Made by a program: the position numbers and the translations under genes. The notes under the pieces were generated by a model. That model made no database searches, was not told where the DNA came from, and was given only the letters and a program-made list of their open reading frames with translations. 64,000 nt of DNA from Heptranchias perlo (lineage: Eukaryota): NCBI RefSeq assembly GCF_035084215.1, contig NC_090340.1, positions 15,190,001 to 15,254,000 on the forward strand, written 5' to 3'. Shown here one piece after another: positions 16,587-46,202 of this stretch (position 1 is the stretch's first letter; every line of letters begins with the position of its first letter).

Positions 16587-16906
16587 CCGCAGCATAAAAA
16601 GTGAAGCTGTTGCTGGCAGGGTCCAGGAGAGATTCGTGAGATACCAGACAGGTTCAAACAGCTGGGCTCTCGACAGGCTCGGTCTCTTCCAAATTGCTGG
16701 AGACTTCAAGTAGTCCATCCGCGTTCTACTGTCTAATACGTTCTACTGTCTAATAGTATATGTGACGATTAGAATGTCATCAGTCTTACACCAAGAATTG
16801 GAAACTTTCTCCGGATAAAATTCAGCCGTTTTACACACAAGCAACAGAGCAGCAGACGAAGTATTTTCAGGTGCTGAGGCGAACAGCTTCAGCGGAGTTG
16901 GAGGAG
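16587..16906 (-). pseudogene. Ig C1-set exon (pseudogene) of a VJ-C1 receptor paralog
   Basis: Acceptor ctccatcag and donor G|gtaaat, phase 1-1. Reads PPTPLKLFASAPENTSSAALLLVCKTAEFYPEKVSNSWCK...ADGLLEVSSNLEETEPVESPAV*TCLVSHESLLDP. Has in-frame stops and a 17-bp tandem duplication (16722-16755). Homologous to 44063-44373. Confidence 0.85.
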
Positions 16907-17690: not shown

Positions 17691-18436
17691 TATAACTCAC
17701 TAACTCATCATCTCTTCCGATTCCACCGTTAACCTGTCAGCGTATATTTACTAATCAGGCACAGTCACTGGGCAAGATTTCCAAATAATTGCAAATAATA
17801 GAAACCGAAAATAAGGAGTGTGGGAAGTGAGAATGGGGCTATAGTAGATCAGCAATATAATGAGATAAATGACAAATTACATTTAATACTGAAAATGTAA
17901 AGTGTTGTAGATTGGGTGAAGATGGCCAAGGTAAGAATACAATGATGGCAATATCATTTGAACAGGGCGGCTTGGAAAGGGCGCTGGAACTAACAATTGT
18001 CTAAACATCTTTACTAATAAAACAAAACAGAATATTGAGATACGTAGCCAGAATATTAGAGTGCAAGCTTGGCTTCAATCTTACAGGGCAAAGAAGTCGG
18101 AGCGACTTTATTCTCGAGTCGGAGCAGTACGATTCCTGGAGTTTGTCGTCTCACGGGTTTTAGTTTGACATTCCAAGAACTGCGAGTCCAGTGTAATTTC
18201 AAACCTGGTTTACAAATGCTCCTGGACACTTTTTAAACCTAACTAGCCTCAACCTAAAAGTTTATAGATTGGTACTGTCCCATCCCTGCTCCCAAAATAC
18301 TCTTTGGGCGAGCGCTCGGCCCATGATTGGATCCAAACACGCGCAGAACCCTCTTCTCTGACAGGAGAGTTATTCAGGGTTCCGCTTTATTGAATATTTT
18401 ATATTCTTCTCGCTCATTGCTTCCATAAATCATTAT

Positions 18437-18690
18437 TAGTGATTTTATACTGCAAATATCTTAAACAACAGAAACGTTCCCAAGATTCACAATACTTAAG
18501 ATTCAAATATCCTCCAGCTTTTTGCTACAGTTATTTCTAATTACTTGCACCAATATTCTCTCTGAAATCACACTCTATATAATAAACTGCCAACTACTCT
18601 CATTTCACTTTCGTTCTCCGCTACAATCACATACGAAGTCTGATCCGGTCCCTTTCACTTCTGGCCGGAACCGAAGTGTCTCAAACCATT
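18437..18690 (-). repeat. Diverged duplicate of the V-exon 3' end and downstream intron at ~19340-19615
   Basis: Shared blocks tagtgatttt..actgcaaatat..aaa..cagaaa.gttcccaagattcaca and caatatt..tct.aaatcac.ctcta..aataaactgc; retains a GGGACCGGATCA (GTGS) J-like remnant. Confidence 0.7.
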
Positions 18691-19583
18691 TGCTGCAATT
18701 CACGTACACCCTTAATTTGGTTTTAAAGGGGATTGCCAATGGAGAACAGTGAGAAGTTCCAATCCTTGTAATGCATGCATGGTGAATAATATCTGCATTT
18801 AAAATCTGTGACATTATTATTTGTAGTTCAGCTGTGGGAACGTTTTGTTCAGATGCTTTATGCTGAAAGGCCGATTATTCGAGGAGTGAGGGCGCATGAT
18901 TCCTGTTCGTATTAAACATAGAACTTAAAAAGATGAAACGTTGACCCTTTGCACCTGGATGATATATTTCCTTATTTGTGAAAAATATTCAGTTTTATAA
19001 TTCTGGAGAAGGGGCTTATGTTTGAAAAAAAAAGACTAGAACATTAATTTTAAGGGAAATCGATAGATTAACAAGGAGCGTTATCGGTTAAGTTGGTATC
19101 CGCGGTCCAGGGATGGTTACACATGATTCCAGTCGAGTTGATTTCCAGCCGTAAATACATTTGTAAGTAGTGACTCTCTGTGAATCATCATATCTGCGGC
19201 ATGAAATGCTCTCCACAGACTTTGGCATTAGTCCAATAAAGCCAGGGATAAGCCTTGATTAAATTAATACAATACGAATTAAGTTTAATACTTCTTATCG
19301 CATACTTTACATTATGCTGCCTAATCCTTTCCATAAAGGCGTTAGTGATTTTTCACTGCAAATATTTTAAAAAGCAGAAATGTTCCCAAGATTCACAGTC
19401 TGTAATATTGAAGATATTACAGTAATTTGTAATTATTTGCAACAATATTCCTCTCAAATCACGCTCTAAACAATAAACTGCGACCCAATCGTATTTCACT
19501 CTTGATCTCCTCGACAATGATACTCTCCGACGAGTTGTGACGCAGTCCCGTTTGATCCATCTCGTCCCTACAATCGCACTTAC

Positions 19584-19891
19584 CGTGCATAATAAGCAGC
19601 GATCCGGTTCGGTATCCAATGTTTTGAAATGTCACCGTACAGACATAGGATGAATCATGGCCCACACTCACATCGAGGAGCTGGAAAGAGCCGCTCCCCT
19701 ATTTTACATGAAACCATGTTCTCCCATCTGATGCTGATCGGCGCAATATATTGTTACCACGTTCCTACTAGTAAACGCTCACTTCAGGGACATTTTGGAA
19801 GAGGGGAAATGTGCAAGAGAAGGTAACGGCGTTGCCTTTGATCGCGGTGACGCGTTCAGGGACTTGCTGCACTTAGAAGTATCACCAGCAG
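19584..19891 (-). pseudogene. Germline-joined VJ-type Ig exon (pseudogene)
   Basis: Reads VQQVPERVTAIKGNAVTFSCTFPLFQNVPEVSVY**ERG...GSGSFQLLDVSVGHDSSYVCTVTFQNIGYRTGSLLIMH, then G|gtaagt. The WW codons appear as TAG TAG (19765-19770), with another stop at 19699-19701. Confidence 0.88.
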
Positions 19892-21409
19892 CAGTGAGAA
19901 AATAAATACAAACAGCGGTTACCGACAATACATTGGACAGTGAAATAACGAGAAGGAATTAAATTAATGAATGTATATAAAAAATAAAGAACACAGCCAA
20001 ATTGTTTCAGGCAAATACACAATTTCACTGCACAGAGTCTAACGGCTACTTAACACGTTTTTATACCGTTAGTGTTTGTGGATTTTTTTCTTACTATCGC
20101 TACAAAAGGATTGTTAACCCTTCAACAATAGCTGCAGCTTGATTACCAGCCCCAGTGGTTGTAAAATAGCAAGCTTTAATAGATTGATCCACAGCAGCAT
20201 TATAGTTATAATAAAACTATCTTCAGATTACATTAAATGACAAGTAATCAATACAATCTGATCTCTCCACCAATTCAAGTTGATCAGACTTGACTTCTGC
20301 AGATTGCCTATGGCAATGGAGTTCTGACCATCCCCTCTCAAGAAGTCTAACTTTTGGGAGGGAGCATGCACTATCTTTATACTATTCTGCCGTGATGTTC
20401 TGCACTTACACACCTCTGTCGTTTGCTCCTGTTTGTAAACCATCCCACTGTGCTGACTCTGTCAAAAACTATCAAGGATGGTTTATAGTACCTGCTGCAT
20501 AAACAGTTTCTTCCACCGTAACCTTACTTGGCATCTGCAATGTCTTATTGTTTATGTAGCCTTTCACTGTTATCAGGTATTAAAAAGTTTGTACTATGTT
20601 ATTTCGACCTGTTCCTTGACTATTACTTGTTTTTCACTATTCTAAAGCATCAGCATTTTTTCTATGACCTTTCGGGCTTCTGTAAATTATCTTTCTCACA
20701 GAGATGGTCTTCTTTTTACATCCATCCTCTTGCTAAGATACATGGCACTATGCGAGCCGGTATTTTTCTATGCTTGTTTCAAACCATATTCGTACATCTC
20801 CCTCCTCTTGAACTTGAGTGAAATCACTCTGGTTCAATATTCACTTTATCCCCAACTATTTCTTCGTCTTGCTTAAGATTAGCCTGAGTTTATATAAGCA
20901 CACATAGACGTATACATATTGTTTCTAAGTTTCATTTGGTTAAAGTCACGCATTACGGTTATGGTGCATCAGGTTATCAAGAAAACTGTATTATGTCCTC
21001 ATCCTGTTTAGTTCCCTGTAATCCATACTTGAGAGAACCCTACAACCTGGATCCTCGTTTCCCACTTCAACTTGGCGAGGGTTCGTTTAAGCAAAATGTA
21101 CATGATAATTAACAAAAACAATGCACAACTTTGTAAAATAATTAACAGCTGCGCAATAATTCTGATCCACAACTGTATTGATATGTTATTTACGTGCTCC
21201 CATTATGATTTCCATCCTATCCCCTCAATTTCTTTTGCCACATTCTGATTTTCCCGATGTAGCTGGTACAGATGTGTTACTGGGATCTCACTTCCTGCGA
21301 AGATTTTCTTTATTTTAAGTTTCATGGGGGAATCAGATATCCATATTGAATTAGCAAATTATTAGTGGCTGAGAGCATGCCAGCGTCCACCGTGATGTTG
21401 GTAACTTCA

Positions 21410-21560
21410 GGGGTTAAATTGGTTAACCGCCAAAAACGGGCGTGGGTATCGTGGTGCATGATTAAACTGCACCCTGTCATTGAGATTCAGGCCGTACGTA
21501 ACATTTATGCTGCCTGATGATCTACATGATTGCTGCGTGCAGCCAGCGCTACCTAAGTTG
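21410..21560 (+). mobile_element. Truncated terminus of a Harbinger-like DNA transposon
   Basis: ggggttaaattggttaacc...tgctgcctgatga...cagccagcgctacc matches the terminus at 50291 and the inverted terminus at 26750. Confidence 0.65.
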
Positions 21561-21561
21561 T

Positions 21562-23404
21562 ATGACCTTGAAATGGCGACAATATAAATAATTGAAGATT
21601 ATATGAAATCCCTTTGGTTTCTATTTAAACAGATGTTCAAATAGCAGGGTTGGATAAACGCATTTCATACAACTGTTAGACGTCTTGTGAAAGTCTCTCA
21701 TTTCCAGTCCAATGACACCATTCCTCGGTTTTGTTGCATGTGATGCAGCAGCTGTAGTATTTCTTGCTCACTCCCTATAACCTTCCCCATTTGTGAACGG
21801 TTCCCTCTCCCCTGGCTTTCTAAATAACACCGTGCTCCTTGCATTATAACACAACTGATTCCAACTGGTCATCCACTTTCCTGGAAGAGAATTCCACATC
21901 AAAAATTGTACAGTTGCAACCTCTTAACCATTTTCTTAAGTTCTCCTTGTCTGCAGCCTACTGTGAAATCAAGTGTTTGGGTTGACTGTGCCACATTACA
22001 TCGGACACCTTGGAGCAAAAGCTACCAGCTGTAATTAAAACTAAACTTTGAACAGGGCATGGAGCTGATAACTGATGCTGGGCTATTCGATTTATCGTTC
22101 CTGAGCAGGGCCTGACTTAATTGCTTTCTGCAGTGAAAGCTTCACTTCAGCTCAACTTTTTGATGTAGCAGTTTAGAGTAGAGGCGAAGTTGCTGCAAGC
22201 TTTCACATTCCGTGACTGGGGAACTTCGGCTAAAGATTGTTGTCAAACGGAGTCATTATTACCGTAACCTGGCCAGCATATGTACCATTGTTTGAAGAGT
22301 CATTCTTTTTGGGTGCAGAATCATTGAGCAAACATTAAATTTGGTTTTAATGGCTAAGCTTTCAAAGATGCTGCAATATTTAGCTACAGTGAAGTATTAA
22401 ACTGATTAATGGATGCCTATGGGGTTATGAGTTTTTTCTTGATGGTGTTAGAATAGATACAGCCCACCAGAGACTGCAGCGGTTTAAGAAAGCCCTTAAC
22501 CACCATTGCAAGGCATGGGCAATAAATCCTGGTCTTGGTAGCCACACCCATTATCACAAAACAATTTTTTTTAAAACTCTTTTTAGCAAAGCAATTGAAT
22601 TGGAGAAATCCCTTGCCCCATCACCCTCTCAACCTCTTACCCATTTTGTTAATTCTGTAATCAGGCTACAATATCGCTGCTGGACTTGAAGGACTTTCTG
22701 ACAAGTCAAAGCGTAACATGGTTTGAAGGAGAAGAAAGCTCCTTCTGCCTCATCTGTCTTAGCTCTACCTCAGAACACTTCCTTTTACACAGCAGACATC
22801 CTGTGCCCTTTAGAACGAGCGTAGCAAGTAGTGAATTCGGTATATTTTTGCACTGTGACTACGTCAATTAAAGAACAAACTTGCACTCTCATACCTTTAC
22901 AGGCAATGATGTACTTTTTTTAAAAAATTGTACAGTTGCAATGTAGGAAATGAGCAAGTGGAACGAGACTATGACTAGTTTCATGTGGAATCCTTGCAAG
23001 CAACAGGCATAGATACTCCCCCCACACACGTCTCTCAATGGGTTGCAAACACAAATACTGGATTGATGTGGAATTCTCTTCCAGGGAAAGTGGATGACCA
23101 GTTGGAATCAGTTGTGTGATAATGCAAGGAGCACGGTGTTATTTAGAAAGCCAGGGGAGAGGGAACCGTTCACAAATGGGGAAGGTTATAGGGAGTGAGC
23201 AAGAAATACTACAGCTGCTGCATCACATGCAACAAAACCGAGGAATGGTGTCATTGGACTGGAAATGAGAGACTTTCACAAGACGTCTAACAGTTGTATG
23301 AAATGCGTTTATCCAACCCTGCTATTTGAACATCTGTTTAAATAGAAACCAAAGGGATTTCATATAATCTTCAATTATTTATATTGTCGCCATTTCAAGG
23401 TCAT
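21562..23404. repeat. Near-perfect long inverted repeat (arms 21562-21902 and 23063-23404)
   Basis: Arms are reverse complements over ~341 bp with one substitution and one 1-bp indel seen; spacer ~1.16 kb. Confidence 0.95.
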
Positions 23405-24191
23405 CCAGATTTCTTGTGTTGATGTATGTATTATAGAATCATAGAATGACACAGCACAGAAGGCGGCCATTTGGGCCATCGTGCCTGTGCCGGCTCTTTG
23501 GACGAGCTATCCAATTATTCCTACTCCCCTGCCCTTTTCCCATAGCCCTGCAAATGTTTCCCCTTCTAGTATTTATCCAATTTCCTTTTGAAAGTTACTA
23601 TTGAATCTGGTTCCACCACCCTTTCAGGCAATGCATTCCAGATCATCACAACTCGCTGTGCACATTGAAAAAAATAATAATTCTCATCTCCCTCTGGTTC
23701 TTTCGCCATTTACCTTAAATCTGGGTCCTCTGCTTACCAAGCTTTCTGTCCACTGGAAACAGTTTCTCCTTATTTACTCGATCAAAACCCTTCATGATTT
23801 TGAAGACCTCTGAAATCTCCCCCTACGGTCCTCTGTTCTAAGGAAAACAATCCTAGCTTCTCTAGTCTCCACATAACTGAAGTATCGCATCCCTGCTACC
23901 ATTCTAGTAAATCTCCTCTGCACCCCCTCTGAGGCCTTGACGTCCTACCTAAAGTGTAGGGCCTAGAATTAGACATAATACTCCAGCTGGGGCCTAACCA
24001 GTGTTTTGTAAAGGTTTAGCATAACTTCCTTGCTTTTGTACTCTATGCCTCTGTTTATAAAGCCAAAGATCCCATATGCTCTTTTAGCAGCCTTCTCACC
24101 ATGTCCTGCCACCTTCGAAAATTTAAAAACGTGCACCCCAAGGACTCTCTGTTCCTACACCCCTTTAAAATTGAATCATTTAATCAATATT

Positions 24192-34014: not shown

Positions 34015-35045
34015 CAGTCCTGAGTTCAGACACTCGTGTTCAGACAAAGTAGGGCAATGACACTCGTGAGTTTGCACAAGACGCAATGCCAGCACTCACG
34101 AATTCAGGCAAGGCATTCGCTGCACTCCCGAGTTCAGAAAAGACACAGCGGTAACACACGACTTCACATAATGCATATCGCTATCAGTCCTGAGTTCAGA
34201 CAAGGCACAGTGCGAACACTCGTGAAGTCAGACAATACACAGCACTATCACTCGTGCGTACAGAAATCACAGAACGCAAACACTCCCGAGTTCAGACAAA
34301 GCAGAGAGCTCTAACACACCCCGCGTTACAATAACATTCCTGAGTTCAGACAAGGCACAACGCTAACACTCGTGAACTTAGATAACACACAGCGCTAACA
34401 CAAATAAGTTCAGAAAAAGCACCGCACTAACACGCGTGAGTTCATACAAAGCATGGCATGGCACTAACAATCCTGCGTTCAGACAAGGCACAAGGCTAAC
34501 AGTTGTGAGAACAGACAAGGCACGGCGCTACAGTCGTGAGTTGAGATAACTCACAGAGCTAACACTCCCGAGTTGAGACAAGGCACAGCACTAACACTCG
34601 TGAGTTCAGAAAATGCACAACCCCTGCGCTCGTTAGTTTGGACAAGACACAATGCTAATACTTCTAAGTTCAGACAAGGCACAACGCTAACACCCCGAGT
34701 TCGGACAAGGAACAGCGCTAACACTCCCGAGTTGAAACAAGTCGCAGCACTAAAACTTCTGAGCTCTGAAAAGCACAGCGCTAACATCCCCGAGCTCAGA
34801 TAACACACAATGCTAACATGCGTGCGTTCAGACAAATCACAGCGCTAACACTCGTGAGTTCAGACAAGTCACAGCGCTAACACTCGTGAGTTCAGACAGG
34901 TCACAGCGCTAACACTCCTGAGCTCAGAGAACGCACAACGCAAACACTTGTGAGTTCAGACAAGCTACAGCACCAACACTCGGGAGTTCAGACACCTCAC
35001 AACAATAACACTCCTGAGTTCAGACAAGGAACGGTCCTAATACTC
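34015..35045. repeat. 32-bp minisatellite, consensus ~gagttcagacaaggcacagcgctaacactcgt
   Basis: Period read directly (cagacaag at 34861 and 34893); about 30 degenerate units. Confidence 0.92.
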
Positions 35046-35389
35046 CCCTAGTTCTAATATTGGAGGTGGTAACGTGCAGTGCTTACAGTCGAGGAGCCAA
35101 CACTGTGCTAATGCTAACATACAAATGCTCACAGAAAGCACATATCTTGTCTGCTGACTGGGACAGAGCGTCATGTTTTCCTATTTATCTTCTTTATGAG
35201 GATGGAGCTCAGTGAAGTTATCTGAATTGTGTTAAATTTGCCTCAACAGTCACTGGTCAGTATGAGCACACTCTTGTGTTGAGAAATTATCTAAGGCAGA
35301 CCTGAACTTTGTAGCAAGCTGGACAGAACCTCGTCCTGCCATCTTGTGCATTCCAGGCACAGTTATTCAGAGAGCCTTACTTCAGAGAG

Positions 35390-35535
35390 CAACAAAAAAA
35401 ACTTACATTTATATCGCACATTAAACACAGGAAAATTTCCCATTGCGATTCACAGGAGTGTGATCAGATAAAAATTAACACTAAAGCAAAGAAGGAGATA
35501 TCAGGATGGGGGACCAAGAGCTTGATTAAAGCGAT
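35390..35535 (-). mobile_element. L2-type 3' tail fragment
   Basis: aacttacatttatatcgcac...gaccaagagcttgattaaag resembles the reverse complement of the L2 end at ~11510-11595. Confidence 0.6.
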
Positions 35536-35564
35536 AGTGTAGGAGTATGGTTCGAGCCCCATGT

Positions 35565-35935
35565 GAGTTCAACACTCCTGCGTTCAGACAAGGCACAAGG
35601 CTAACACCCAGGAGCTTGGAGAAGACACAATGCTAATACTTCTGTGTTCAGACAAGGACAGCGCTAACACTCCCGAGTTCAAACAACACATAGCACAAAC
35701 ATTCGTGAATTCAGTTAATGCACAGCACTAACAGTCGTAAGTTCAGACAAGGCATAGCGCATCACTCGTGAGTTCAGACAAAGCAAGGCATTAACACTTG
35801 TGAGTTCAGATAATACACAGCGCGAACACTCCCAAGTTCAGACAAGACACAGCACTAATACTCGTGAGTTCCCACAAGACACGCCGCTACAATTAGTGAG
35901 TTCAGATAACACAGAGCGCTAACACGCTTGGGTTA
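35565..35935. repeat. Second block of the 32-bp minisatellite
   Basis: Same unit, about 11 copies. Confidence 0.9.
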
Positions 35936-35942
35936 ATATAAT

Positions 35943-36917
35943 TATTTTTATTTCGTTCATGGGATGTTGGCCCATTCCTAATTGCCCTTGAGAAGGTGGT
36001 GGTGAGCCGTCTTCTTGAACCGCTGCAGTCCGTGTGGTGAAGGTTCTCCCACAGTGCTGTTAGGGAGTTCCAGGATTTTGACCCAGCGACGATGAAGGAA
36101 CGGCGATATATTTCCAAGTCCGGATGGTGTGTGACTTGGAGGGCAACGTGCAGGTGGTGTTGTTCTCATGTGGCCTACTGTGCTTGTCTTTCTAGGTGGT
36201 AGAGGTCGCGGGTTTGGGAGGTGCTGTCGAAGATGCCTTGGCGAGTTGCTGCAGTGCATCCTGTAGATGGTACACAGTGCAGCCACTGTGCGCCGGTGGT
36301 GAAGGGAGTGAATGTTTAGGGTGGTGGATGGGATGTCAATCAAGCAAGCTGCTTTGTCCTGGATGGTGTCGAGCTACTTGAGTGTTGTTGGAGCTGCACT
36401 CATCCAGGCAAGTGGAGAGTATTCCATCACACTCCTGACTTGTGCCTTGCAGATGGTGGAAAGGCTTTGGGGAGTCAGGAGGTGAGTCACTCGCCGCAGA
36501 ATACCCAGCCTCTGACCTGCACTTATAGCCACATTATTTATATGGCTGGTCCAGTTAAGTTTCTGGTCAATGGTGAACCCCAGTATGTTGATGGTTGAGG
36601 ATTCAGTGATGGTAATGCCGTTGAATGTCAAGGGGACGTGGTTAGACTCTATCTTGTTGGAGATGGTCATTGCCTGGCACTTGTCTGGCGCGAATGTTAC
36701 TAGCGACTTATCAGCCTAACCTGGATGTTGCCCACGTCTTGCTGCATGCAGGCACGGACTGCTTCATTATGTGAGGGATTGCGAATGGAACTCAACATTG
36801 TGCAATCATCAGCAAACATCCCCATTTCTGAACTTATGATTGAGCGAAGATCATTGATGAAGCAGCTGAAGATGGTTGGGCCTAGGACACTGCCCTGAGG
36901 AACTCCTGCAGCAATGT
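35943..36917 (-). mobile_element. CR1/L2-clade LINE (same family), 5'-truncated
   Basis: GVPQGSVLGPTIFSCFINDL, FADDCT, LGFTIDQKLNWTSHI. Confidence 0.92.
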
Positions 36918-36929
36918 CATCATCATCGT

Positions 36930-38003
36930 TAGACGCAGACACACTCAGAACTACATCAATATAATTACACTCACAGACATGCTCACCACTGCACAACCGT
37001 CATTGGACTCAGGCACACTCAGCACTACATCAATACCATTACATTCACAGACATACTCTTCACTGCATCACTATCATTGGACTCAGACACACTCAGCACC
37101 ATATAAGTATAATTACACTCACAGAGACACTCACAACCAGATCAATATCATTAGACACAGAAACAATCATCATGACATCAGTTTCATAACACTCAAAGAC
37201 GCATTCACCACGGTATCAATATCATTAGATTTACAAACATTCACCAATACATCGATATCATTACACTCACAGACACACTCAGCACTGCATCACTATCATT
37301 AAACTCAGACACACTCAGCCCCACACCAGTATAATTACACTCACAGACACACTCACCGTTACATCACTATCATTGAACTCAGAACGCTCACCACTACAAC
37401 AACGTCATTACACTCACAGACACATTCACCACTGCACCACTATCATTAGACTCAAACACACTCACCTCTACATCAATATCACTACACTCACAGACACATT
37501 CACCACTGCAACAATGTTATTAGACTCACACACTCACCACTCCATCAATATCATTGGACTTACAGATACTGACCATAACATCGATATCATTACACTCATC
37601 TTCATTCAACTCTACATCAATACCGTTAAACTTACACACACTCTCCACCGTATCAATGTGATTAGACTTACAGACACCCGCCACTACATCAATAATATTG
37701 GACTCACAGACACACTCACCACTGCATCAATATCATTACACTCAAAGACACACTGACCACTACATCAATGACATTAGACTCACAGACACACTCATCACTG
37801 CATCACTATCATTAAGCTCAAACACACTCAGCACCACATCAATATAATTATACTCACAAACACACTCATCACTGCACCACTATCATTAGACTCAAACACT
37901 ATCCGTGCACTCGCAGACACATCACTGCCTCACTATCGTTAGAATTGTAGTCACACTCACCACTGCATCACTATGGTTAGACTGGCAGACACACCACTGC
38001 ATC
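36930..38003. repeat. 36-38-bp CA-rich minisatellite, consensus ~agactcacagacacactcaccactgcatcaatatcatt
   Basis: Period 38 at 37701, 37739 and 37777; strongly G-poor on the plus strand. Confidence 0.9.
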
Positions 38004-38440
38004 AAGGAGCATGCTTTGTTACACCATCTCCGTTTTGCAATAAATATAGAATTACTTTATCGAAGGAGGAAATTAATGTACTGATACACTTGGATCGTTC
38101 AAAAAACTCAAGCTAAATCAATCTGGTATTAAAACACGATTTTTAAAATTTCTAAATAATTATGCCATCATCCCTGGATGTCAAAAATATTACAACATAC
38201 ATCTTTAATTTGTGCCTGCCAGTATTGATTCAGTGATAGCTTTTCATCCTGTTCTTAGTGAGTTGACCAAATTACCTAATTTATATTAAAATCAGTTGTT
38301 ATTTTGATTAAGAAATAACCAAAGGTCGAAAGCAGAAGAATTTCTCACTGCTCAGTTTTCACTGTGCTCAATGTGAAATGACATTGAAGTAAAAATGTGC
38401 TACTTTGCCATAACTGAAATTCTCCAAATTGTTTCGCCAT

Positions 38441-41614: not shown

Positions 41615-41740
41615 CTTCAAAGCAAATTGATTTTGCGTGGTCGACAAGGATCCCCACCAGCACCAGAATTGCAAATAAGCCCACGTATAGCTGAAGAACC
41701 ACCTGGGGCTTGGTTCCGTAACTGTGGTCTAAAGCTAGAT
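41615..41740 (-). CDS. Transmembrane exon of an Ig-superfamily receptor (intact, 126 bp, phase 1-1)
   Basis: Acceptor gttttag and donor AAG|gtaaga; reads (D)LALDHSYGTKPQVVLQLYVGLFAILVLVGILVDHAKSICFE. Confidence 0.72.
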
Positions 41741-41802
41741 CTAAAACTGCAGTTACAAGCAATAAGTTATTCAGCCTTGAACAGACTTTTCTTCATTAAC
41801 AC

Positions 41803-42826
41803 TACATAAGAACATAAGAAAAAGGAGTAGCAGTAGGCCATATGGCCTCTCGAGCCTGCTCCGCCATTCAATCAGATCATGGCTGATCTTCTACCTCAAC
41901 TCCACTTTCCCGCCCGATGCCCATATCTCTTGATTCCCCTCGAGTCAAAAAAGCTATCGATCTCAGCCTTGAATGTACTCAATGACTCAGCATCCACAGC
42001 CCTCTGGGGTAGAGAGTTACAAAGATTCACCACCTTCTAAGTGAAGAAATTCCTCATCATCTCAGTCTTAAATGGCCGACCCCTTACCCTGCGACTGTTG
42101 TCCCTAGCCTGGACTCTCCAGCCAGGGGAAACAACCTCTCAGCATCAACCGTTCAAGACCCCTTAGAATCTTATAGGTTTCAATGAGACCACCTGTCATT
42201 CTTCTAAACTCCAGAGAACATAGGCCCATTCTACTCAAACTCTCCTCATATGACAACCCTCTCATCCCAGGAATTAATCTGGTGAACTTTCATTGCACCA
42301 CCTCTCAGGCAAGTATATCCTTCCTTAGATAAGGAGACCAAAACTGTATGCAATACTCCAGGTGAGGTCTCAACAAAGCCCTGTACAATTGTAGTAAGCC
42401 TTCCTTACTTTTGTACTCCAACCCCCTTGCAATAAAGGCCAACATGCCATTTGCTTTCCTAATTGCTTGCTGTGCCTGCACTCCAAATTTTTGTCTTTCT
42501 TGTACGAGGACACCCAAGTCTCTCTGAACACCAACATTTACTCGTTTCTCAACATTTAAAAAATATTCTGTTTTTCTATTCTTCCTACCAAAGTGAATAA
42601 CCTCACATTTCCGTACATTATTCTCCATCTGCCACTTCTTGCCCATTCACTTAACCTATCAATATCCCGTTGCAGACTCTCTGTGTCCTCCTCACAACTA
42701 ACTTTCCCACCTAGCTTTGTATGGTCAGCAAACTTGAATACGCTCTGTCCCTTCATCGATGTCTTTATACAGATTATATATAGCTGAGTCCCAAGCACCG
42801 ATCCCTGCGGCTCCCCACTAGTTACA
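41803..42826 (-). mobile_element. CR1 3' fragment (intronic)
   Basis: FADHTKLGG, KCEVIHFGRKN, LYRALLRPHLEYCIQFWSP; acataagaacataagaa tail. Confidence 0.92.
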
Positions 42827-43002
42827 TTATGTGTATTCCGGTGAGTGTGTTATTAAACATTCCACATGCCCACACTCGGGATATCTGCGCTCATTTGCCT
42901 GCTTATGTTGATTACAACATTATAATTCCATTATTTAATAATTGATTTTATTACACCCTATAATTTGAATGTGTAGTTACTCCCCGATACAATAACACTT
43001 AC

Positions 43003-43290
43003 CGTACGCAATACGTTGGGAGCCAATTCCATCTGCCAGTTCTATTTTGATGTCCCATTCTTCAATGAAACACTCCGGAGATTGGGACGCAGTGGTCAAA
43101 GGAGCACTTTCCCTTTTTTCACTTTTTGGTTGGTTATTCTGGATTACTGATCTAACCTTTGAAACTACAGAATTACACCGCGTGACCGTCAATTCTGTCT
43201 TCCAGGATACAGCGCCGTGCACACATGGGCACAGAGACCCTGGACCTGGTCAATTTTAAAATTTGAAGAAGGCGAAGGGAACGTCCGCTT
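43003..43290 (-). pseudogene. Heavily decayed VJ-type Ig exon
   Basis: AVSWK (cf. AVYWWK), SGVFH* (cf. DSGxYxC; TGA at 43062-43064) and DGIGSQRIAY G|gtaagt (GxGSxLxV). The intron start gtaagtgttattgta resembles that of the V at 19584. 5' boundary approximate. Confidence 0.6.
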
Positions 43291-43474
43291 CCTCAAAACA
43301 TTAAAGCGACTCTACTGAAAGTTTATAAACTGTCCGGGGCGTACAAGGGAATATTGGAGCACATTAAATCGGCTTCACGCAGAACGGAACACGGTATCGA
43401 GACAAAGCAGTGGTCTCTAGTCTCCCGCAGCCAGTCTCGTTTTTATTTGGCGTCACACTGAGGCCTGCCTTTAC

Positions 43475-43543
43475 AGTTGTGCAACACTGGGCACGGACCC
43501 AAATGTAACAGGACAACAGCACCGGAAGAAGAAACCGCAACAT
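43475..43543 (-). pseudogene. Candidate leader (signal peptide) exon
   Basis: MLRFLLPVLLSCYIWVRAQCCTT followed by gtaaag, just upstream of the V remnant. Confidence 0.45.
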
Positions 43544-44062
43544 AAAGTGGCGACTGAGCTCATATTTTCAGTCGGGGTCAGGACTACTGGTTGTCAACAA
43601 TGTCACTTTCTGATCCATTCGCAATGAATCGCCCAACGGAGGTCTGGATCAGGGGTTATAGTGGGAAAGGGTGGACAGCAGCCAACCTAAACGCAGTTCC
43701 TCATCATGGTGCTCTTGTAAGGAAACCAAATAATGGTAGAGAACACAATCGTTTTAACAAGAGGACAACGTTGAATGTTTTCTAATAAGCAACAGAGGAA
43801 AAAATAATTGGATACAAGAGATAAAGCTCCTGCTTCACATTTTGGAAGCTGTCGAGGTTTAACAGACAGTTTCTGGGTGGACCACGATAATATTACTTCC
43901 GGTTTTACAACAGATTTGGGTCAATAATATTTGACAACAAAACATGAACTTTCCGTTTTATTTGGTGTTATAACATGTTTATCAATATGAACAAATTCTA
44001 TGATATACCCTTTCAGGATTTAACAGTTGCTGACCTCACTTCTTGGACTGTTGGCCTCTTAA

Positions 44063-44373
44063 CTGGGTTGGAATTGGTTACAGCGTACGTGACAATGCCG
44101 GGAGCGTGGAGGGAGATATGAGATACCAAACAGATGTAAACAGTCCCGCTCGGGACACGCTGCGTTTCTTCCAAAGAGCTGGAAATTTCAAACAGTCCCT
44201 CAAGCTTTGCCGTTTAGTGATATTTATCCCAGTTACAGTTTCGACGCTATTTTTATACCAGGTGAGGGTGAAATCCTCGGGGTGAAATGCAGCAGTCTCA
44301 CACACAATAGTCAGAGGCGCTGATGATTTTCTCTCGGGTGCCACGGAGACAATCTTCAGTGGAGCTGGGGCAG
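44063..44373 (-). pseudogene. Ig C1-set exon (frameshifted)
   Basis: Acceptor ttctgttctgcag. Reads APAPLKIVSVAPERKSSAPLTIVCETAAFHPEDFTLTWYKN...[1-nt shift]...EGLFEISSSLEETQRVPSGTVYICLVSHISLHAP. Donor appears mutated (G|ttaaga). Confidence 0.9.
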
Positions 44374-45342
44374 CTGCAGAACAGAAAATTGGGAAAATCA
44401 GGTTACAGGAGCGATTTTAAATGTGACTTCGACCTGTATTATAGCCGTACCATTCCCTGATCATTTACACTCTCTCCATCCATACCACGAGTCACTATCA
44501 GGTTCTGTTCAGTTTTACCTCCGCTATATTTTCTTATTGTTCACTCATAGATTTTAGATTACTCCCTGATAATTCCAACCTTCAAACAGGCACATCACAA
44601 TGATTCTGGATAAATGATTGTGTTTCATATTTCAATGAATGGAACAAGTTAATCCTGGGAGAAGAAGTGCACAGAGTCCCTCCCTGTTTGTCAGTCACTG
44701 TCGCCCTGCCTCCCCAAGAGAGAAACATATGATCTGTAGATTACCGAGAATAAAAGGAGCGACCTTATGGTTATCGGACCGATCTCACAGCCGAATCAGA
44801 GGAATAGCTGAGGGAAATTATATTCGCTTCAACCTCAGAAGGCATCAGCAACGGAGCCTCTGGGGAAAATTGCCTTTATTGGAGACAAAAGAGGTGACGA
44901 CATTATGGTTCATGGTCCAGTTTCATAAGTGAATGCTTAATTTTAGGAGAGAATGTTAAACCTCACTGAGAACGACAGAGGCAAACAGAACATCTAAAAT
45001 GGGGTACTGGCCCTGTATATGGTGGGAAAGGCGTATTAATATAAAATATTTTCAGTCAGTCATCAATATATCGGGATTTTTCCGCAACTTCCATCATCAG
45101 AAGTCTGATGTAGAAACTACATGTTGAGATGATTCCAGTAACATGCTACTTACTCTCGTCAATAGTGATGGATTTTACTCAACTCAGCAAAGGAAGCGTC
45201 ATATTGAGCCGTGTAATTAACAGTTGTGCACAGAGAACGCGGTGCAAAATTTAATTTCACTGTAAATGTATTAATATAATTATTTTATGCAAAGTATGGT
45301 ACAATACAACAATGACAAACATGCTCCTTGTTACACACTTAC

Positions 45343-45652
45343 CATTCACAGTTAAACGTGATCCGTTTTCATTTTCACCAATTTTTCCCTGACGAACCGC
45401 TGAGCAGAGATAGATTCCAGAGTCCTGGTATGTTCCGCTATTCAGACTGAAGCTGCTTCCATTATCTTCCACACCGGTTGTTTTTATGTAATCGGCCTCT
45501 GACGTCAGGTATTTGTTCTCACCCTGTTTCCACCAATACACTGCAACCATTTCTACAACTGATTAGGAGACTTTACAATGGAAGGTGACGTTTGTCCCGC
45601 TGAGTACTTTTTGGGGGTATTTGACTCACTGAGAACGAAAGATGATCAGCGG
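45343..45652 (-). pseudogene. Germline-joined VJ-type Ig exon (frameshift + stop)
   Basis: Acceptor ttttctggcag and donor G|gtaagt. Reads SVSQ..KVLSGTNVTFHCKVS*SVVEMVAVYWWKQGE...FSLNSGTYQDSGIYLCSAVRQGKIGENENGSRLTVN. Length 310 bp (not a multiple of 3); TAA at 45563-45565. Confidence 0.9.
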
Positions 45653-45809
45653 CTGCCAGAAAATATATTCAAAGTCCGGTTAATTGCATCTGATATGACA
45701 TGAAAATAATGAAGTAAACATAGATACACGAATTACATTTCACTGACTGTAAGTAGAAACTACTTCAGATACATTTGCGTTATTGGAGCAGCCGGGTCAC
45801 ATTATAAAC

Positions 45810-45870
45810 CGGTATCTGTGTAAATAATCCCAGGGACAGAGAGACACAGTAGAACAATACACGCCAACAT
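45810..45870 (-). pseudogene. Leader (signal peptide) exon of the VJ-C1 gene
   Basis: MLACIVLLCLSVPGIIYTDT + G|gt (phase 1, weak donor), ~157 bp upstream of the V exon. Confidence 0.65.
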
Positions 45871-46202
45871 TCTGAGCAAATGAACACTGACTGCACTGTC
45901 AGCCGCTGTAAGAAGGTTTGCGGATTGTTTAATCTGAAATGTGTCGCAATGACGTTTGACATCCTGCCCCTGGATTCAGAAAATGGGTTCGGTGAGATTC
46001 AAGGAGATTTGCTGACAATTTTTGTGCGAAGCGGCCACTAGAATGACCAGTGTCACGGACATCAAAGAGCAAGGAAAATTAGCATCTGAATTTCAAATGA
46101 ACAATGTACCAGCATTTGTTGGGGCATGTCTTATTTCCCTATAGATGATGATGTGAGAATAAACGTCATCAGTGCAAGCTCCTTGGGGTGAATTACGTGA
46201 GG

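Follow-up and report, generated by a model that had tools for sequence, protein, structure and literature searches.

When a stretch of genomic DNA is filled mostly with repeats yet holds the broken exons of immunoglobulin-like receptors, an obvious question arises: what kind of gene left these remains? The stretch considered here, hereafter the window, comprises 64,000 nucleotides from Heptranchias perlo (NCBI RefSeq assembly GCF_035084215.1, contig NC_090340.1, positions 15,190,001 to 15,254,000 of the forward strand). An earlier note, made from the letters alone, had pointed to exons for non-rearranging variable (V) and C1-type constant domains on its minus strand and had suggested a lineage-expanded family of paired receptors. 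Here we argue that what remains in these exons are degenerate copies from a clustered set of chondrichthyan single-pass receptors, each consisting of a leader, a short non-rearranging V domain, a C1 domain and a transmembrane (TM) segment, which are likely to be paired immune receptors; we put the probability of this reading at roughly three in four.

The minus strand does carry the exons that the earlier note listed, a second leader among them being unconfirmed; the main set is here called gene A and a V-C1 pair at 16.6-19.9 kb gene B (Table 1). In gene A, the ATG at 45870 opens the top match of the family leader profile (score 66 versus 33 for the runner-up); the leader had been run to 45810, which is a cryptic GT, and homology places its end at 45816. 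The V exon is recognized by Pfam both as V-set (E 2e-7) and as ig (7e-10), and the following exon as C1-set (E 8e-5), as had been proposed. The absence of a recombination signal sequence (RSS) from the V exons also holds: the 64 kb contain four weak heptamer-nonamer matches, none of them at an exon edge. The introns of the family genes are of phase 1. The best match of gene A is another H. perlo protein, P0001 (XP_067853650.1, automatically named tapasin-related-like), with identity at 63 of 69 residues in V, 98 of 103 in C1 and 38 of 42 in TM. P0001 has a V-C1-TM architecture, with a gene model that begins at an internal Met within V; its last exon, or any exon for a tail with an ITIM (tyrosine-based inhibitory motif of immunoreceptors), was not found in the window, and a search with its TM and tail returned P0001 only.

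The TM exon had been assigned to a separate VJ-TM gene. A contig of RNA type, 621 nt long, agrees with the gene A C1 exon in 235 of 240 bases and carries a single additional one; of the 30 bases at its loose end, 28 match the beginning of the TM exon. This C1-TM junction assigns the TM exon, real as it is, to gene A; a separate VJ-TM gene is unsupported, and the second V remnant lies within the C1-TM intron. With the differences of the contig introduced, the C1 exon of gene A becomes 312 nt long and has an open frame. A sister version of gene A, about 98% identical and either an allele or a recent duplicate, is thus spliced from C1 to TM, these being the only two exons that the contig covers, and a near-identical version of gene A appears to be transcribed. 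A further candidate, the top type-1 TM match in the window at 41.1 kb, was rejected as repeat sequence by reading.

In the window, gene A is a pseudogene. Its V lesions recur in read-derived contigs from the DNA runs X1 and X3, with 0 differences and 0 gaps over 45505-45914, and the C1 frameshift is likewise present in DNA read contigs. The C1 donor, TT in the window, is GT in those contigs, and therefore this lesion is unconfirmed; the leader donor, AT in the window, is GT in a contig from X2. The read contigs stem from three DNA runs of one sample (X1-X3), which are possibly one data set and possibly the source of the window, and are not independent support; run X5 was added as coming from the same sample, and no run is indexed as RNA. 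Thus, the earlier view that the copies are dead applies to the window, while the near-identical version appears to be transcribed. Over 42900-46000, the read contigs hold a second version of the whole leader-V-C1-second V block, with many differing sites and, locally, about 10% difference in the introns and the V remnant; it represents either a haplotype that has diverged or a duplicate that arose recently in tandem.

The family to which these exons belong was delineated by a profile search of 1.84 billion representative sequences, which gave 151 matches at E <=1e-30, the best 150 of the 151 being used. Altogether, 191 proteins were gathered, and, among the matches listed, those shorter than 530 residues that scored >=60 bits with either family profile, V or C1, were taken as members, yielding 142 proteins. 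The 63 named ones are all chondrichthyan and come from 15 species that range from a chimaera (Callorhinchus) to rays, under automatic names that vary widely (SIRP-like, tapasin-like, IgL-like, MHC II-like, NITR). Where contigs are given, the members of a species lie on contigs of one size, the exception being one 660-kb scaffold of C. punctatum; ten H. perlo proteins share one 66.5-Mb contig. The V-C1 architecture is seen in 96 of the 142 proteins and V-C-C in a single one; there are also 12 V-only models, of which some are identical to V-C1 models and thus probably exon-skipped. A TM segment followed by one to five ITIM-like motifs is found in 62 proteins, a TM without ITIM in 33, and no TM in 35. 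An Arg-bearing TM (R-x15-[VIMF][DE][HY]) occurs in 11 records, a number that includes isoforms (four catshark isoform records and two near-identical C. punctatum records); P0001 alone has Gln at the Arg position, as does gene A. Two Arg-type members have inhibitory partners with near-identical ectodomains, namely, P0023/P0015 (V 100%, C 96%) and P0087/P0050 (C 92%); over the family, the median pairwise identity is 37% for V and 43% for C1. A plasmid tblastn and a metagenome scan gave no family match. These data support the earlier proposal of a lineage-expanded, non-rearranging V-C1 family of paired receptors that seems to have been little described, and intact members of it exist elsewhere.

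The V domain of the family is distinctive. The spacing of its two cysteines is 54-60 residues (59 in 58 of the 99 scored), as compared to 63-66 in three SIRP sequences and 68 in three B7-type sequences. The J-like G strand noticed earlier is indeed encoded in the V exon, with the pattern GxG[ST]xLxV in 74 of 101 sequences, but the Phe or Trp that precedes it in true J segments is present in 0 of these 74, and the gene A copy has lost the first Gly as well. The C1 hallmarks F[YHFS]P and YxCxVxH are found in 107 and 108 of 112 sequences, respectively. When one skate member was modelled with AlphaFold (mean predicted local distance difference test, pLDDT, 82), the V domain showed no C' and C'' strands, so that the family V is predicted to lack them, and its best structural match is a skate VNAR (Z 14.5, root-mean-square deviation, rmsd, 1.9, 99 residues aligned). 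Foldseek returned antibody chains only and was uninformative; a V-only profile retrieved mostly multi-domain I-set proteins from the PDB.

A two-copy model of the ectodomain of the skate member P0010 scored 0.46, with 0.04 for the best control; contacts agree between runs to 90% or more, pLDDT is at least 83, and the interface is formed by the C-F-G strands of C1. In the microbial benchmark, 21 of 30 dimers and 0 of 23 monomers passed the mark used for dimers; in the eukaryotic one, 17 of 29 dimers (7 of 16 from animals) and 0 of 30 monomers did so, but only one of the seven dimers without a solved relative. Hence, this one skate member is predicted to homodimerise via the C-F-G face of C1, although the pass may possibly reflect memory of immunoglobulin dimers.

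As to phylogeny, a quick-search tree of 52 family rows and 19 outgroups, seven of the latter being C-C rather than V-C, shows the family as one clade (Shimodaira-Hasegawa-like approximate likelihood ratio test, SH-aLRT, 99; stem 1.03) whose branching order relative to SIRP and to B7-type proteins stays open. In a V-only tree, the family falls with SIRP, NITR-like, IgH and reptile V domains, and a branch with a support of 99 separates these from B7-type V. The family and the three SIRP sequences, among which P0157 was checked as a SIRP, are not joined in either of these quick trees, which leave an unresolved trichotomy, and the NITR-like P0153 falls outside the family in the tree of V domains. 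P0155, P0119 and P0153 gained no name from the PDB; 'B7-H6-like' and 'NITR-like' are labels, that of P0153 being derived from motifs. The best V matches outside the chondrichthyans are turtle and viper receptors (P0096, P0119, P0146, P0164), which have at least three short V domains (Cys-Cys 57-61) and tails of the Arg type or with ITIM-like motifs, and which were given arbitrary names by automatic annotation; in the V tree they, too, are placed apart from the family.

The genomic position could be judged indirectly in the sawfish, where the family member is on a 53.95-Mb contig. In the accessible part of the PMC10751288 supplement, the coordinates listed for chr3 and chr12 exceed this length, so that the member cannot be on either of them, and, assuming size-ordered numbering, it is unlikely to be on chr23, 31 or 34. 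The sheet for the sawfish major histocompatibility complex (MHC; chr34) in that part of the supplement has NCR3 genes and no gene with the name of the family member, which would seem to be located outside the MHC and its paralogons. The same source lists, on reedfish chr12 (0.3-11.7 Mb), the chromosome of beta-2-microglobulin, a cluster automatically named SIRP-like and tapasin-related-like, the likeness being by name alone.

If these proteins are paired receptors, their working can be envisaged as follows. The diversified V domain would bind a cell-surface ligand, with C1 serving as a stalk and, possibly, as a dimer surface; ITIM-tailed forms would inhibit via SHP phosphatases, and Arg-TM forms would activate via an adaptor carrying an immunoreceptor tyrosine-based activation motif, such as FcR-gamma or CD3-zeta. 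We infer that the cluster is under birth-and-death turnover. Gene A would then be a recent duplicate or allele of the Arg type that lost first the Arg and later the frame, and gene B and the V remnant within the gene A intron would be older casualties, the latter nearly erased.

Several observations weigh against this scenario. The signalling steps are suggested by motifs and by analogy with the established behaviour of SIRP, LILR and NKp30-type receptors, and leukocyte expression and ligand binding by the variable V are presumed. Most of the family proteins are automatic gene models; 68 of the 142 have no TM or no ITIM, many of them perhaps being truncated, and the near-identical Arg and ITIM pairs may reflect alternative splicing or haplotypes in the assembly instead of distinct genes. 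Bony-vertebrate members may exist among the 79 unnamed proteins or beyond the top 150 profile matches used. The best structural match of the whole ectodomain is B7-H6, a ligand (Z 16.1, rmsd 3.3, 193 residues aligned), with several B7-type rows nearly tied. Both trees are quick, have no NCR3, PRARP, UrIg, IgL, T-cell receptor (TCR) or VNAR sequences, and leave the root unresolved. Finally, the RNA-type contig is the sole RNA evidence; its run was typed as RNA by guess, and V is not among the exons that it covers.

Is the family already known under another name? PRARP (reportedly described by Fu in 2019) or its VJC1 counterpart, a shark NCR3 subtype (reportedly treated by Kinlein in 2021) and NITR homologues would be the names to consider, with MDIR and XMIV as further receptors of possible relevance. 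PRARP is said to have a V-C1-TM-ITIM layout in several vertebrates, the spacing of the F and G strands resembles that of NKp30, and one skate member bears the automatic name 'novel immune-type receptor 1d'. Yet the accessible part of PMC10751288 places NKp30 and PRARP in the MHC, where the sawfish sheet shows no gene bearing the name of the family member, no bony-vertebrate V-C1 protein is among the named matches listed, and the second domain is a C1 and not the I domain of NITRs. The accessible text of the literature searched, including PMC12227049, PMC10751288, PMC13262535, PMC6795676, PMC7916673, PMC11599192, PMC7677710, PMC10529500 and PMC3964593, contains no description of the family, key subscription papers being outside this scope; nor did the family accessions match anything in the paper supplements searched. 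An earlier description is rather unlikely.

We consider it decidedly unlikely that the family is simply the cartilaginous-fish version of SIRP, the CD47-type checkpoint receptors, minus one C1 domain. The single C1 in 96 V-C1 proteins, against one V-C-C protein, and the V domain shorter than that of SIRP do not fit such an origin, and neither tree joins the two groups. Many members have SIRP-like automatic names, and a VJ-type V, a C1, ITIM tails and charged-TM partners are common to both. Among solved chains scored with the family profile, UrIg2 comes second and SIRP-alpha third (E 5e-25), but the IgA heavy chain and UrIg2 score equally with SIRP-alpha.

The earlier note had also linked these exons to the receptor architecture that would have preceded RAG-mediated rearrangement. 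Direct descent from such a VJ-C1 precursor, as for UrIg, would account for the single-exon V with its G strand, the C1, the phase-1 introns, the absence of RSS, the rank of UrIg2 among the solved chains, the VNAR-like V and the presence of the family in both holocephalans and elasmobranchs. We nevertheless regard it as quite improbable, and our data do not support the link: the V has no C' and C'' strands and no Phe or Trp before GxG in any of the 74 motif-bearing sequences, the leader is of the ordinary split type, there is only one C domain, the family forms a long-stemmed clade of its own in a tree without UrIg, IgL, TCR or NCR3 rows, and the sawfish member seems to lie off the MHC and its paralogons. 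It is very improbable that these are not receptors but ligands or decoys of the B7 type: B7-H6, PD-L2, B7-H3 and butyrophilin top the fold search, and atlas structure matches include CD276 and tapasin-related clusters, but the V domains group away from B7-type V, and a GxG G strand, long multi-ITIM tails and Arg-bearing TMs speak against it.

The paired-receptor reading has implications beyond the window. The split between chimaeras and sharks occurred more than 400 million years ago, and, to our knowledge, it is an open question which receptors set activation thresholds on shark natural killer (NK)-like and myeloid cells. It is tempting to speculate, although we find it doubtful, that the family is the main, as yet undescribed, activating and inhibitory receptor complex of cartilaginous-fish leukocytes, of an age beyond that split, with a VNAR-like short VJ and a dimerising C1, possibly reading polymorphic MHC class I as a counterpart of KIR, Ly49 and NITR. 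A 2019 review states, in its accessible part, that NITRs of cartilaginous fish are still to be identified (PMC6795676). A paired family kept from chimaera to rays offers intact candidates for study, for example, P0006, P0008, P0038, P0002 and P0030. It also adds a multigene member to the short list of proteins that have a C1 domain but are not Ig, TCR or MHC, and is thus relevant to the spread of the VJ-C1 unit. The scattered automatic names may explain why it went unnoticed. The copies in the window matter mainly as markers of turnover.

Table 1. Features of the window that belong to, or lie among, the receptor exons
Feature	Position	Strand	Remarks
Gene A leader exon	45816..45870	-	18 codons plus phase-1 G; AT in place of the donor GT
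Gene A short V exon	45343..45652	-	310 nt; exon includes the G strand; frame shifted near 45614; TAA stop at 45565
Gene A C1-set exon	44063..44373	-	311 nt; 1-nt loss at 44203 (frameshift); donor TT in the window
Candidate second leader	43475..43543	-	signal-peptide-like by eye; unconfirmed; donor phase 0
Decayed family V exon	43003..43292	-	inside gene A C1-TM intron; best of 1558 donor-anchored sites
Interspersed repeat, LINE (long interspersed nuclear element)-like by reading	41798..42763	.	in C1-TM intron; self-blastn matches to 8.6-9.4 kb and 52.5-53.4 kb
Gene A TM exon	41615..41740	-	family Arg-type TM; Gln at the Arg position
Gene B V exon	19584..19891	-	acceptor TG; frameshift at exon start; three stops
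Gene B C1 exon	16587..16906	-	tandem duplication of 17 nt (16722-16755), with frameshift; stop codon at 16656

The second VJ remnant of the earlier note is real, albeit as part of an intron. It has no Pfam match in the three minus-strand frames and no match to the family hidden Markov model (HMM), and its unanchored frameshift-aware score of 36.9 is unremarkable (null mean 27, standard deviation 4, maximum 54.5). When anchored on the splice donor, it scores 38.9 versus a maximum of 24.5 over 1558 other GGT sites (global score 1.3 versus -6.9). The octamer GGTAAGTG occurs four times in the window, and three of the four occurrences close the three V exons, those of gene A, gene B and the remnant. 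The second leader is less secure: it looks like a signal peptide and is not among the top seven minus-strand matches of the family leader profile.

Over the whole window, the family HMM detects the V and C1 exons of genes A and B, with independent E-values (iE) between 4e-30 and 7e-12; no further match falls below E 2. The paralogous V-C1 pair is thus confirmed as gene B (iE 6e-16, 8e-16 and 7e-12); its identity to the family members included in the tree does not exceed 48%, and it is a distant paralogue, broken in both exons. No TM exon or leader for it was found in the window. Its V-C1 intron contains a 240-bp direct duplication (73%; 18387-18627 and 19295-19518) that copies sequence just downstream of the V exon. 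A possible 5' half of a V exon at 20261-20383 on the minus strand was not accepted; its frameshift-aware score of 54.5 is the top of 758 null windows, but it partly matches a junk first exon of the gene model P0050 and may thus be repeat-derived. The rest of the window consists of repeats: of 33 long open reading frames, five are reverse transcriptases and 28 have no match, so that none provides a synteny marker. Degenerate tandem arrays of 32-bp and 38-bp units occupy 34196-38004, and a 345-bp inverted duplication of 99% identity (21559-21902 and 23063-23407) suggests a recent element insertion.

How, then, does the family compare with known receptor systems? The SIRP family (alpha, beta, gamma) is similar in being clustered and in combining a VJ-type V and C1 with ITIM-tailed and charged-TM members (62 ITIM proteins and 11 Arg-TM records here), but its ectodomain is V-C1-C1, with two C1 domains instead of one, and the V of our family is 4-10 residues shorter and forms a separate clade. 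SIRP-beta has a Lys in the middle of its TM, whereas the Arg of the family is near the outer end. NITRs consist of a V and a six-cysteine I domain, whereas the second domain of the family is, by Pfam, a C1-set domain. Like the family, the NITRs of ray-finned fish are clustered receptors with diversified V domains and both activating and inhibitory forms, according to the accessible part of PMC7916673.

Elasmobranch UrIg and UrIg2 share with the family the split leader and the non-rearranging single-exon VJ followed by C1; as far as the accessible text of PMC12227049 goes, they are two paralogous genes located in the MHC and in the antigen-receptor complex, and UrIg2 has nine C1 domains. The family, in contrast, is multigene, is also found in a chimaera, and has a single C1, spliced to a TM with signalling tails, instead of several C1 exons after the VJ exon. 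NCR3/NKp30, compared here by description only, has a joined VJ-type V without the J Phe and an Arg-bearing TM, as in the family; it is a single V-TM protein without C1 and is MHC-linked (sawfish chr34, in the accessible part of PMC10751288), while the family has a C1. PRARP and Xenopus VJC1, likewise compared by description, are said to be non-rearranging V-C1-TM proteins with an inhibitory motif, as in the family, but are reported to be MHC-linked; both are named in the accessible parts of PMC10751288 and PMC11599192. The V of IgNAR also has no C' and C'' strands, but VNAR rearranges and sits on multi-C antibody chains, and the likeness may be convergent. Ig and TCR proper, germline-joined IgL included, have either segments flanked by RSS or a VJ already joined that carries FGxG/WGxG and the C' and C'' strands; none of this is seen in these short V domains. 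Tapasin, TAPBPR and B7 proteins differ in their N-terminal domain or in a B7-type V without GxG, whereas the family proteins begin with a leader and V. The family is probably an undescribed one of a known kind; it would work like SIRP or NITR yet departs from both in its domains.

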